From assembly GCF_051903065.1 (NCBI RefSeq), contig NZ_CP178438.1: a DNA stretch of 64,000 nucleotides. One strand, written 5' to 3'. This stretch comes from Escherichia coli (GTDB taxonomy: Bacteria; Pseudomonadota; Gammaproteobacteria; Enterobacterales; Enterobacteriaceae). Positions 18,473-41,965 of this stretch are shown in pieces (the first letter of the stretch is position 1; the number at the start of each line of letters is the position of its first letter). The notes beneath the pieces were generated by a model. The model did not search any database, was not told the origin of the DNA, and saw only the letters and a program-made list of their open reading frames with translations. Position numbers and translations under genes: made by a program.

Positions 18473-18602
18473 AGTGTGGTAGAATATCAGCTTACTATTG
18501 CTTTACGAAAGCGTATCCGGTGAAATAAAGTCAACCTTTAGTTGGTTAATGTTACACCAACAACGAAACCAACACGCCAGGCTTATTCCTGTGGAGTTAT
18601 AT

Positions 18603-18932
18603 ATGAGCGATAAAATTATTCACCTGACTGACGACAGTTTTGACACGGATGTACTCAAAGCGGACGGGGCGATCCTCGTCGATTTCTGGGCAGAGTGGTG
18701 CGGTCCGTGCAAAATGATCGCCCCGATTCTGGATGAAATCGCTGACGAATATCAGGGCAAACTGACCGTTGCAAAACTGAACATCGATCAAAACCCTGGC
18801 ACTGCGCCGAAATATGGCATCCGTGGTATCCCGACTCTGCTGCTGTTCAAAAACGGTGAAGTGGCGGCAACCAAAGTGGGCGCACTGTCTAAAGGTCAGT
18901 TGAAAGAGTTCCTCGACGCTAACCTGGCGTAA
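18603..18932 (+). CDS. trxA: thioredoxin 1
   Basis: ORF 18498-18932 trimmed to [13 protein letters not shown]; WCGPCK active site (109 aa). Confidence 0.95.
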
Positions 18933-35216: not shown

Positions 35217-35293
<77 letters not shown>

Positions 35294-35350
35294 TTTAGTC
35301 CCGGCGCTTGAGCTGCGGTGGTAGTAATACCGCGTAACAAGATTTGTAGT

Positions 35351-35427
35351 GGTGGCTATAGCTCAGTTGGTAGAGCCCTGGATTGTGATTCCAGTTGTCG
35401 TGGGTTCGAATCCCATTAGCCACCCCA
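35351..35427 (+). tRNA. hisR: tRNA-His (GUG)
   Basis: GGTGGCTATAGCTCAGTTGGTAGAGCCCTGGATTGTGATTCCAGTTGTCGTGGGTTCGAATCCCATTAGCCACCCCA including the extra 5' G typical of tRNA-His. Confidence 0.95.
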
Positions 35428-35447
35428 TTATTAGAAGTTGTGACAAT

Positions 35448-35534
35448 GCGAAGGTGGCGGAATTGGTAGACGCGCTAGCTTCAGGTGTTAGTGTCCTTAC
35501 GGACGTGGGGGTTCAAGTCCCCCCCCTCGCACCA
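35448..35534 (+). tRNA. leuT: tRNA-Leu (CAG)
   Basis: 87-nt class II tRNA GCGAAGGTGGCGGAATTGGTAGACGCG...CTTCAGG...CCCCCCCTCGCACCA. Confidence 0.95.
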
Positions 35535-35576
35535 CGACTTTAAAGAATTGAACTAAAAATTCAAAAAGCAGTATTT

Positions 35577-35653
35577 CGGCGAGTAGCGCAGCTTGGTAGC
35601 GCAACTGGTTTGGGACCAGTGGGTCGGAGGTTCGAATCCTCTCTCGCCGACCA
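35577..35653 (+). tRNA. proM: tRNA-Pro (UGG)
   Basis: CGGCGAGTAGCGCAGCTTGGTAGCGCAACTGGTTTGGGACCAGTGGGTCGGAGGTTCGAATCCTCTCTCGCCGACCA. Confidence 0.95.
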
Positions 35654-37202: not shown

Positions 37203-38858
37203 TTAATCAGATTTAATCTGCGCGCGTGGTGGATACTTTTTCAGGATCTCCATATACGCGTGCATTTCGGTCTGTAGCGGTACACCCATCGGAATATGGC
37301 GCACGCCGATAGAGTCGCTCTCCTGCGGATCGGTGTACAGGTTAAACACCGACGATCCGGCTGTTTGCATTACTGTGCCGGTGAATCCACCCTGATATCC
37401 GCTCTGGGTATAAGCGTAAGGTTGCTGAATCAGGACGTGATACTTGAATTCATCCATACGCACAGCAGCGAGTTTACCGTTGAGGAAGTAGTGCTCGGCC
37501 TTACGGTTAGACTGACCATTTGTTCCCAGGAAGAAAGATGTCTGGTCCACACCATCGATAAAGGTGGTTTTCGGCACTAAATTCGCCACTTTCGCGCCAG
37601 GATGCCCTGCCAGATCCAGCGCGGTAGGGAAGAGATCTGCCAGATCGACAATACCGTCAGATTTACGCGGTTGGATCATCCCTTTCCAGTACACGAAAGT
37701 CGGAACGCGAACGCCGCCTTCCCAGGTAGATCCTTTCGCACCACGGAACGGTGTGCGTCCGTGCGGCGGTACTTCGGCTTCCGGTCCGTTATCGGAGGTA
37801 AAGACAATCAGCGTGTTATCAAGCTGACCGTTTTTCTCTAGTGCTTTATACAGATTAGCGAACACATCGTTCATTTCCACCATGCAGTCGCCATACGAGG
37901 TGCGTGCCGGAGAGCTACCCGCATATTTGGCGTTCGGGTAGTTATCGAAGTGACAGCCGCGAGTGCCGTAATAGAGGAAGAAAGGCTTCTCACTCTTCGC
38001 CATCTTGTCGAGGAACTTAACGCCATATTCCATCCAGCGTTGATCCAGATCTTCCATATATTTCGGCGTAATGTCGGCAATGGCCTGTTGTTCGCCGCCG
38101 CGCACCGCATGAACGTCATCTTTGCTAAATGGTAATTGCTTGATGTATTCAGAACGGTCCGGACTCAGGGCCACTTCCGGATTGACGTGAACGTCGCGCC
38201 ATTCGGTGTACATATCAGACACCGAGTTAAAGCCACGGAAATCATCAAAGCCAACGTTCTGCGGCTGCGACTCTTTGTTTTCCCCCATATGCCATTTCCC
38301 GATGGCCTGAGTGACGTAGCCCTGATCGTGCAGCAACTGCGGCAGCGTGGTTAACCCTTGCAGCCCGCCCGGTTGCCCGTACATTGGCGGCATCAGAATG
38401 CCGTGGTGGATGGAGTATTGTCCGGTGAGAATGGTGGCGCGGGTTGGGGAAGAGCTTGGTTGAGAATACGCCGAAGTTAAAATCAGCCCCTGGCTGGCAA
38501 CGGCGTCGATATCTGGTGTAGGGTTACCCACCGCCACGCCGCCACCGTTAAAACCGACGTCCATCCAGCCCACATCGTCCAGCAAGAAAACAACCACATT
38601 CGGTTTCTTACCGGTTTTTTTCTCAAGTTCTGCCAGCTTCTGCTGGGTTTCTTTATCCTGCGCCGGATGCTGCATTACTGGCATCATGTTGTCGGCAATA
38701 GTGGTCGCCGGTTTAACCAGATACTGGTTTGGGTGATCGTATCCGGCAAAGCCTTTGCGTGCGGTGGCAGTTGAAGGGGTATCTGCTGCGCTGGCCATGA
38801 GAGGAAGAGCGGCGGCGACAGCAACAACAAGAAGTTTGGGTGAAAACGAAAATTCCAT
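37203..38858 (-). CDS. aslA: arylsulfatase-like protein
   Basis: 551-aa ORF with signal peptide and sulfatase signature ([27 protein letters not shown] region). Confidence 0.9.
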
Positions 38859-39282
38859 GCAAAATGCTCCGGTTTCATGTCATCAAAATGATGACGTAAT
38901 TAAGCATTGATAATTGAGATCCCTCTCCCTGACAGGATGATTACATAAATAATAGTGACAAAAATAAATTATTTATTTATCCAGAAAATGAATTGGAAAA
39001 TCAGGAGAGCGTTTCCAATCCTACCTCTGGCGCAGTTGATATGTAAGGCAGGTTTATTATATCGCGTTGATTATTGATGCTGTTTTTAGTTTTAACGGCA
39101 ATTAATATATGCGTTATTAATTGAATGAATTTTATCATTCATAATAAGTATGTGTAGGATCAAGCTCAGGTTAAATATTCACTCAGGAAGTTATTACTCA
39201 GGAAGCCAAGAGGATTACAGAATTATCTCATAACAAGTGTTAAGGGATGTTATTTCCCGATTCTCTGTGGCATAATAAACGA

Positions 39283-39489
39283 GTAGATGCTCATTCCATC
39301 TCTTATGTTCGCCTTAGTGCCTCATAAACTCCGGAATGACGCAGAGCCGTTTACGGTGCTTATCGTCCACTGACAGATGTCGCTTATGCCTCATCAGACA
39401 CCATGGACACAACGTTGAGTGAAGCACCCACTTGTTGTCATACAGACCTGTTTTAACGCCTGCTCCGTAGTAAGAGCAGGCGTTTTTTT
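39283..39489 (+). ncRNA. glmZ: GlmZ small RNA
   Basis: starts GTAGATGCTCATTCCATCTCTTATG...; ends with hairpin gcctgctccgtagtaagagcaggc plus T7 on the + strand between minus-strand aslA and hemY; recognised as GlmZ from memory. Confidence 0.75.
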
Positions 39490-39536
39490 ATGTGTCAGGA
39501 AGGCCCCGGAGGTGCTTGCCTCCGGGTGAGAAGGAA

Positions 39537-40733
39537 CTACTGTGGTGGGTTGTTCTGCAACGTTAACATCAAACCGTCGCGACGCATCGCTGCAGCTTCT
39601 TCCGGCTTGTGCAGTCTGTCCAGCGCGTCGGCAAGCCATGCGTAATCGTAGGCGTCCGGACGTTGTTTCAGCGCTGCGCGGAAGGCGAGCGATGCTTCCT
39701 GCCATTCTCCGTGCTTCATCAGTGACTGGCCCAGTGTGCTCCACAACAGCGGGCGATCGCCGACGTTTTTGATTTGCTGGCGCAGCACTTTTTCAAGCTG
39801 TTCAGGGTTATTGGTTTTCAGACGCGGGATCGGCAGCAGTAGGCGATCGTCATACTGGCGTTTCAGGCCGTCGATGATAATTTGCTGGGCAGTATCATGA
39901 TCGTCACATTCAATAAGATGTTCCGCCATTGCCACCTGCAACGCTACCTGATGACGCGTTTTCCGGCTTTGGTTTTTCCACCAGTTACGCAAACCTTCGC
40001 TACCGTTATCGGCACGCGCCTGATCCATCAGGCCAATCCATGCCTGTTGTTCCAGCATTGCACGATGTTCTTCATCACCAACATGGGCTTTCGCCATTGA
40101 TGGGATAATATCCAGCAGCGAACTCCATGCACCTGTGCGGATATACGCCTGTTCCGCCAGACGTAATACTTCCGGATGGCGTGGCGTAACTTCCAGCAGC
40201 TTATCCACGCCGTGGCGTGCAGCATGGTTTTCATTACGGGCCAGTTGCAGACGTACACGGGTGATTTCTACCGGAATGGTGTCATTGCCGGCCAGCTCCG
40301 CTGCGCGTTCCAGATGTTGGTTGGCGCGCGCTTCATCACCACGTTGTTGCGCGGCTTCGGCAGCCAGTAGATAGTTCACCACCGGTTGTTCAGCGTGATC
40401 GGCATTTTTCGCCATCAGCTTTTCAACTTGCTGATAATCGCCTTCCGCCAGTTTCAGCAGCGCCTGTTCGGTCTGCTTACGTGCACGGCGACGCTTACGC
40501 CCGACAAACCACCCACGGGTGTGCGCGCCAGTGCGGAAGATCCGCCGCAGTAGCCACTCAATGGCAAACAGCACTACCATCGCCAGAATCAATATGATCG
40601 CCAGGCCCGTGACGCTGGTTTCGATATTGTAGTTGTCGGTCTGGATCAGCACATAACCCTGATGACCGGCAATCATCGGGCCAACCACGATCCCCGCAAT
40701 CAGCAACACAAAGAGCAATAACACTTTTAGCAT
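39537..40733 (-). CDS. hemY: heme biosynthesis-associated TPR membrane protein HemY
   Basis: 398-aa ORF, N-terminal TM helices then TPR-like repeats. Confidence 0.9.
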   Translation of the reverse strand: MLKVLLLFVLLIAGIVVGPMIAGHQGYVLIQTDNYNIETSVTGLAIILILAMVVLFAIEWLLRRIFRTGAHTRGWFVGRKRRRARKQTEQALLKLAEGDYQQVEKLMAKNADHAEQPVVNYLLAAEAAQQRGDEARANQHLERAAELAGNDTIPVEITRVRLQLARNENHAARHGVDKLLEVTPRHPEVLRLAEQAYIRTGAWSSLLDIIPSMAKAHVGDEEHRAMLEQQAWIGLMDQARADNGSEGLRNWWKNQSRKTRHQVALQVAMAEHLIECDDHDTAQQIIIDGLKRQYDDRLLLPIPRLKTNNPEQLEKVLRQQIKNVGDRPLLWSTLGQSLMKHGEWQEASLAFRAALKQRPDAYDYAWLADALDRLHKPEEAAAMRRDGLMLTLQNNPPQ

Positions 40734-40735
40734 GG

Positions 40736-41965
40736 TTATTCTCCTTGCGGCGCGGCTGCCGGAGTATCAGCTTGCGGTGCAGGTGCAGGTGCAGGTGCAG
40801 GTGCAGGTGCAGGTGCAGGTGCAGGTGCAGGTGCAGGTTTAGCTTCCGTTGTCTCCGCTGCCGGTTGTGCCAGCAGGTTACGCACGCGAGTCTGCATCAG
40901 TTTTTCCAGCATCGCCTGGCTTTGCAGGGTTTCCGGAAGATCCATCGAGATATTTTGCTGGCTTAACTGGTCCACCTCGTCGAGGAACGCTTTGGTGGTG
41001 GCATCATCAGTATCGTAGTAAGCACGTACCCAGGTGGAGACGTTCTCCAGCGCCTGGCGATAAGTCTCTTCCTGATGACGCGGTACAGCTTGTGCTGCGA
41101 CCAGCAGGCGAGAGCGAATATTTTCGCGCAGATAGATATCCTGATTTGGCGCTAACAGCGGTACGGCGGTGTCATCACGACGGCGAATCGTAATGAAGTT
41201 GTCCATAAAGTTCTGCCAGCTTTTTTGCAGATTGATACGCCATTCGCTGATGGAACTGGAAAGCTCTTCACCGTCGGAATCCATCGGCGAACCATCGCTG
41301 TCATTATCGGCCAGACGCAGGTTATCTACCTGATTTGAAAGCTGATTAAGCTTAAGGATGATGCCGTCATAATCCACCTGCGATACTGCAGAAAGGCTGG
41401 CGATATCATCGGTAATTGCCCGACGAACGGTAATCAAACTCGGGTCATTCATATCCGCCAGGCTGGCGTCTGCACTTTTCAGCAACGCTGCAGCGGTCGT
41501 GACGTCCTGATCGCTCCACAGCTTCCGTCCGGCGAGTTTCACCAGAAAATCGGCCTGAGCCAGCAGCCAGGTTTTAGCATCGCTGCCGGAAATGGTGGCG
41601 ACCTTTTGTTGGACTTCATCCAACTGTTTTGCCAGCGTTTCTTGCTGACGATTCGCCTGCTTAAGTTGTGCAGCTTGTTGCTTAATAATGCCTTCCAGCT
41701 CGGCTTTTTGGCTCTCCTGGGCTTTTTGCAATGCCGTCAGTTGGTTAGCCAGGGCATCGCTGGTGGCGGTCTGATTGACGGCCTGTTGTTTACCCCAGCC
41801 ATACAAACCGACGCCTGCCGCCAGAGCAATAGCGATAGCCACCGCACTGAGAATCAATGCGGTATTGTTCTTACTCTTTTTTTCTGTTGCGACAGGTTGT
41901 GACGTGGTGTCCACGGCCTCCCTGGTCTCTTCAACCACGGCGGAGGTTTTTTCTTGTTCCGTCAT
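40736..41965 (-). CDS. hemX: HemX (uroporphyrinogen-III C-methyltransferase-like membrane protein)
   Basis: 409-aa ORF with coiled-coil region and a C-terminal Pro-Ala repeat tract. Confidence 0.88.
40777..40836. repeat. perfect hexanucleotide tandem repeat (gtgcag)x10 encoding (PA)n in hemX
   Basis: 10 uninterrupted gtgcag units read directly; the + strand frame gives an (RC)10 artefact ORF. Confidence 0.95.

Follow-up and report, generated by a model that had tools for sequence, protein, structure and literature searches.

The small RNA GlmZ, also known under the older names SraJ and RyiA, activates glmS through Hfq-assisted base-pairing (PMC4737144, PMC4152352). Its primary transcript has a length of 207 nt and its processed form of ~151 nt (PMC4152352), and it is laid out as three stem-loops (SL1 to SL3), with a single-stranded stretch between SL2 and SL3 (PMC4737144). 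Hfq recognizes this single-stranded region, in which U-U dinucleotides have been implicated, and the 3' oligo-U, which provides the second contact, with the proximal face of Hfq (PMC4737144). Inactivation of the sRNA proceeds via RapZ, which binds GlmZ and recruits RNase E, resulting in a cut within the pairing region (PMC4737144, PMC4152352). The SL2 module steers this RapZ-assisted cleavage of whatever is located 3' of the module (PMC4737144), and processing to ~151 nt takes away the pairing nucleotides (PMC4152352). Under scarcity of GlcN6P, RapZ is sequestered by a second sRNA, GlmY (PMC4737144, PMC4152352).

GlmY (Tke1/SroF) is homologous to GlmZ, resembles it in SL1 and SL2 and likewise binds RapZ, but lacks both the glmS-pairing site and an accessible 3' oligo-U and is a poor Hfq binder (PMC4737144). 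The two genes also differ in their transcription: E. coli glmY has overlapping sigma-54/sigma-70 promoters under GlrR control, whereas glmZ of E. coli requires neither GlrR nor sigma-54 (PMC3045617). A single constitutive sigma-70 promoter was located in the -40..+32 fragment of K-12 glmZ by deletion and by mutagenesis of the -35 and -10 hexamers (PMC3045617). The glmZ genes of Salmonella and Yersinia belong to the same sRNA family and are likewise clustered with hemCDXY, but they carry sigma-54 promoters, three GlrR sites and IHF sites upstream (PMC3045617).

Assignment of the interval to glmZ

In the 64,000-nt stretch of E. coli DNA analysed here (the window), the interval 39283-39489 on the + strand is, with near certainty, the known E. 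coli sRNA gene glmZ, whose GlmS-activating product is described in the literature as Hfq-dependent and trans-acting. The gene is already known, and biologically its presence here is nothing new. The features of the locus are as follows:

37203..38858, - strand, aslA (putative arylsulfatase), 551 aa; open reading frame, K-12 and RefSeq annotation; context only
39248..39276, + strand, sigma-70 promoter of glmZ; sequence reading and identity to K-12
39283..39489, + strand, glmZ primary transcript, 207 nt; RF00083, K-12 identity and literature length
39537..40733, - strand, hemY, 398 aa, last gene of hemCDXY; NF008017 HemY; context only
40736-41965, - strand, hemX, 409 aa; NCBIfam

The assignment was supported by covariance-model searches with Rfam 15, in which the whole window was scanned at gathering thresholds and the segment 39150-39600 was rescanned permissively. 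The whole-window scan returned RF00083 (GlmZ_SraJ) at 39283-39489 (+) with a score of 218.3 bits (E = 3.5e-56) against a gathering score of 60, the match spanning the entire model (positions 1-214 of 214), and no non-canonical pairs were flagged in the structural alignment. The permissive rescan additionally listed SNORA68, Esr41 and Thr_leader; these were rejected as chance-level matches driven by the terminator hairpin, with scores far below the gathering scores.

The second line of evidence is alignment to glmZ of E. coli K-12 MG1655 (b4456, lengthened to take in its terminator), with which 206 of the 207 nt are identical; with the flanks included, the identity is 454/458. The sole difference within the sRNA, G for A, falls in the terminator loop at 39470 (nt 188); the flanks contribute three substitutions, at -171, -76 and +212. 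The window gene thus shares with K-12 glmZ the flanking genes and their orientation, the promoter region, the terminator stem, the U-tail and the glmS-pairing nucleotides.

The preliminary description, made from the sequence letters, had placed a GlmZ sRNA at exactly this interval and had named two checks: an Rfam search, in which the absence of a GlmZ hit would speak against the proposal, and alignment to K-12 glmZ. Both came out in its favour. The start and end of the Rfam match, which is full-length and far above 60 bits, coincide with the claimed coordinates, the K-12 alignment gave the near-identity reported above, and the string GTAGATGCTCATTCC, from which the sequence was said to resemble GlmZ, does begin at 39283.

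Since GlmY, a homologue of GlmZ, is 66% identical to it and folds in a similar way (PMC4737144), the interval could in principle carry the paralogous decoy (Rfam GlmY_tke1, clan CL00011), acting by RapZ sequestration and not by glmS pairing. A lower-scoring match of the same clan did overlap 39283-39489, and the window sequence can be aligned to K-12 glmY along SL1 and SL2. However, the clan competition was won by GlmZ_SraJ, and the alignment to K-12 glmY fails 3' of SL2, in the part that holds the glmS-pairing region and the terminator, both of which differ, against 206/207 identity to K-12 glmZ. Moreover, K-12 glmY sits between glrK and purL and not between aslA and hemY, and no sigma-54-like match was found upstream of the window element, whereas E. 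coli glmY has a sigma-54 promoter (PMC3045617). The traits that define GlmY, namely its locus, a sigma-54-like promoter, the missing pairing site and the best score within the clan, are all absent from this element. Identity with GlmY is refuted by the K-12 glmZ identity, the glmY locus and the glmY alignment, and we regard it as vanishingly improbable. By comparison, every trait of GlmZ that can be checked by sequence was found: the covariance-model score, three stem-loops, the glmS-pairing site, the synteny, the terminator with oligo-U and the sigma-70 promoter region.

The order and orientation aslA(-)/glmZ(+)/hemY(-) correspond to the published glmZ synteny (PMC4152352, PMC3045617), and K-12 glmZ is likewise located between aslA and hemY, on the strand opposite to both. 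The name aslA follows the annotation of K-12 and of a RefSeq genome with 100% identity to a 461-nt query comprising glmZ and its flanks; for the product, the NCBIfam arylsulfatase matches were below threshold. The HemY assignment is based on NF008017 of NCBIfam (830.4 bits against a cut-off of 608). hemY is convergent with glmZ, and its stop codon (39537-39539) is located 47 nt from the glmZ 3' end.

Several further observations concern other parts of the window. hemX encodes 409 aa here, whereas the K-12 product has 393 aa and that of NZ_CP083585.1 405 aa; near the 3' end of the gene, at 40776-40838, there is a perfect tandem repeat of the hexamer GGTGCA (10.5 copies), which probably accounts for this in-frame length polymorphism. 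At 3131-3420 (+), Rfam Rev39_5p_UTR was matched with 154.9 bits (GA 88). Translation of GUGGUGGUGAUUAUUAUCCCACCG, a string within the matched segment, would give a run rich in Val/Ile, and from the gene order of K-12 the element looks like the ilvL leader-attenuator of ilvGMEDA under another Rfam name. A TrxA_thermometer match (78.8 bits, GA 58) is located at 18533-18632 (+); compared with the model, it carries an insertion of 16 nt. Four clustered tRNA genes lie directly upstream of aslB, at 35217-35650 (+), in the position that argX-hisR-leuT-proM occupies in K-12.

Promoter, terminator and the spacers on either side

An extended -10 element, TGgCATAAT, is located at 39268-39276, 6 nt before G39283, and a weak -35 is found ~17 nt upstream of the -10, around 39248-39253, both hexamers being assigned by eye. 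The region from -40 to +1 is identical to that of K-12. A sigma-70 consensus scanner did not flag this promoter, in keeping with the weak -35. No sigma-54-like element was found in the aslA-glmZ spacer when up to two mismatches to TGGCAC-N5-TTGCA were allowed. In this respect the locus differs from those of Salmonella and Yersinia, and the glmZ gene of the window is, judged by these sequence features, of the E. coli type with a sigma-70-only promoter. Transcription of the gene in the source strain would be expected from its near-identity to the characterised K-12 gene.

The spacer upstream of glmZ also contains a perfect direct repeat, ACTCAGGAAG, in copies at 39181-39190 and 39196-39205 (+), 15 nt apart and ~80-100 nt upstream of the glmZ start. 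The same repeat is present in K-12, and a role in aslA regulation is possible.

At the other end of the gene, a perfect 11-bp inverted repeat, AACGCCTGCTC/GAGCAGGCGTT, occupies 39455-39465/39474-39484 with an 8-nt loop and is followed by T7 at 39483-39489, so that the 3' oligo-U of GlmZ (U7) is present after the terminator stem. The observation from which the preliminary description had argued, a + strand terminator between two minus-strand genes, therefore holds, aslA and hemY both being on the minus strand. A terminator scan found no second site of this kind in 38800-39700, and the number found in this segment was not above chance (1 found against 0.8 expected in shuffles); consequently, the hairpin alone does not constitute statistical evidence.

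The proximity of hemY, which ends just 47 nt away on the opposite strand, suggests another interpretation, in which the hairpin with its T-run serves hemCDXY, an operon convergent with glmZ, as a bidirectional terminator, and the covariance model has matched a decayed, non-expressed sRNA relic. On the minus strand, A7 precedes the glmZ hairpin, and the glmZ terminator, read in reverse, may indeed add to hemCDXY termination. However, promoter, +1 position and sRNA alike hardly differ from the experimentally characterised K-12 gene (PMC3045617), and a relic would not keep at least 99% identity in 5422 genomes while its flanks diverge. At the same time, hemY could be served by a separate GC-rich hairpin nearer to its stop codon, so we consider a relic highly improbable and retain the reading of the interval as an intact glmZ gene. 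This separate structure, CCCGGAGG-TGCTTG-CCTCCGGG, has an 8-bp stem and occupies 39505-39526, past the glmZ terminator and short of the hemY stop codon. It probably terminates hemCDXY transcription on the minus strand; a clean U-tract is not present after it on that strand.

There is a slight chance that the A-to-G change at nt 188 or the substitutions at -76 and -171 subtly alter the termination, stability or expression of GlmZ, or that the ACTCAGGAAG repeat is a regulatory site of glmZ/aslA. Whatever the effect of these variants or of the repeat, the identity of the element would be unchanged.

Transcript architecture and predicted pairing with glmS

Within the 207-nt transcript, the following elements were delineated:

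39283..39347, + strand, stem-loop 1, nt 1-65; Rfam consensus structure, inner helix in the MFE and centroid folds
39355..39428, + strand, central stem-loop 2, nt 73-146; Rfam consensus structure, inner helix in the MFE/centroid fold
39429..39455, + strand, single-stranded region, nt 147-173; glmS-pairing nucleotides, U-U dinucleotides and processing site
39432-39439 and 39445-39451, + strand, glmS base-pairing nt 150-157 and 163-169; duplex/co-fold with the K-12 leader
~39433, + strand, main RNase E processing site, ~nt 151; literature (PMC4152352)
39455..39489, + strand, stem-loop 3, Rho-independent terminator; 11-bp stem, 8-nt loop, U7

In the alignment to the Rfam consensus, all helices of SL1, SL2 and SL3 are formed in 39283-39489. 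The 207 nt fold with a minimum free energy of -60.8 kcal/mol, below that of dinucleotide shuffles (z = -2.9). Folding of the single sequence recovered SL3 entirely but SL1 and SL2 only in their inner helices, so the Rfam consensus was only partly reproduced by this approach.

The glmS gene lies outside the window, and the K-12 glmU-glmS intergenic leader (195 nt) was used as the pairing partner in place of that of the source strain. Duplex prediction between the GlmZ single-stranded region and this leader gave two helices of 8 and 7 bp (15 bp in all), spanning -40..-22 of the leader, with an energy of -19.2 kcal/mol. In the first of them, nt 150-157 (UUGUUGUC) pair with -29..-22 and, in the second, nt 163-169 (GACCUGU) pair with -40..-34; all glmS-pairing nucleotides are identical to those of K-12 glmZ. 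Folded alone, the K-12 leader (-48..+6) has UUGACCGA paired with a UCGG..UCAA stretch (-8.2 kcal/mol), which we take, by our own assignment, to include the Shine-Dalgarno sequence. On co-folding with GlmZ nt 147-207, the leader hairpin opens and the Shine-Dalgarno stretch becomes unpaired, with a ddG of -9.8 kcal/mol, whereas the gain for the processed 5' fragment (nt 73-151) was merely -0.2 kcal/mol.

Note that the duplex energy alone gives no statistical support, as 18 of 300 mononucleotide shuffles of the pairing region reach -19.2 kcal/mol, and that the GlmY tail also gained -5.9 kcal/mol with the glmS leader, albeit at a different site. The in silico pairing thus fits the mechanism but does not prove it independently. 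Duplexes of -64 to -86 kcal/mol, calculated for full-length and processed GlmZ and for GlmY against the entire 195-nt leader, were discarded as meaningless, since intramolecular structure is ignored in them. With these limits, the predicted pairing fits the anti-antisense model from the literature and also the loss of activity on cleavage at ~nt 151.

By analogy with K-12, the gene would be transcribed from its own constitutive sigma-70 promoter, giving a 207-nt RNA that begins at G39283 and ends at the intrinsic terminator at 39489. Its nt 150-169, between the central stem-loop and the terminator, would pair with positions ~-40 to -22 of the glmS 5' leader, counted from the AUG, displacing the arm of the leader hairpin that covers the Shine-Dalgarno sequence and thereby allowing glucosamine-6-phosphate synthase (GlmS) to be translated. 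With GlcN6P in ample supply, the adaptor RapZ would present GlmZ to RNase E, whose cut at ~nt 151, inside the pairing region, would reduce the sRNA to a 5' fragment of ~151 nt that has no activity. Under GlcN6P shortage, GlmY, as a homologous decoy, would tie up RapZ, and full-length GlmZ would build up. For this strain, the binding of Hfq and RapZ, RNase E cleavage, GlcN6P control and GlmS activation are all expected from near-identity to the K-12 gene, and the presence of glmS, glmY, rapZ, hfq and rne, which lie outside the window, may be presumed from its being E. coli.

Conservation and annotation status

Of 5426 complete E. coli genomes, 5424 carry the 207-nt glmZ sequence and two lack it; in 5422 of the 5424 the identity over the 207 nt is at least 99%. 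Additionally, three extra copies of glmZ were observed in this collection, and one copy is located on a plasmid. The 461-nt query mentioned above (window 39100-39560) combines the 207 nt with ~180 nt of upstream and ~70 nt of downstream sequence. For this longer sequence, the identity was at least 99% in 687 genomes, 95-99% in 4300 and 90-95% in 437, so that 4737 genomes fell between 90 and 99%. The near-invariance of the 207 nt, together with the divergence of the flank-bearing query, indicates that constraint is stronger on the sRNA than on its flanks.

The preliminary description had stated that GlmZ is absent from ORF-based tracks, and most RefSeq/PGAP records indeed show no feature over the 207 nt: this was the case for 18 of the 20 RefSeq records listed. 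In the other two, NZ_CP018970.1 and NZ_CP124385.1, a "hypothetical protein" is annotated over glmZ. Such annotations, along with a 116-aa GTG-initiated open reading frame at 39394-39744 (-) that is present in the ORF list and overlaps glmZ, could be taken to mean that the region encodes a small protein. However, this frame lies mostly inside hemY in another reading frame, as is typical of a chance ORF, nothing is annotated over glmZ in the remaining 18 records, and the conservation needs no explanation beyond the RNA model, the terminator and the published biochemistry. We therefore give practically no credence to a coding function, and the two "hypothetical protein" calls are probably spurious ORFs.

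Even for K-12 the annotation differs from the published transcript: RefSeq glmZ has a length of 172 nt (3986432-3986603) and ends before the terminator, compared with 207 nt for the primary transcript in the literature. This discrepancy is a matter of annotation and not of biology.

The practical value of the glmZ assignment is likewise one of annotation, as the gene is invisible to ORF tracks and is unannotated in most PGAP-processed RefSeq E. coli genomes. Marking 39283-39489 (+) as glmZ prevents the long aslA-hemY spacer from being mistaken for unexplained conserved non-coding DNA. The sRNA so marked is among the best-characterised in enterobacteria, and the cascade of GlmY, GlmZ, RapZ and RNase E to which it belongs leads to the control of GlmS and, through it, of the supply of cell-envelope precursors.
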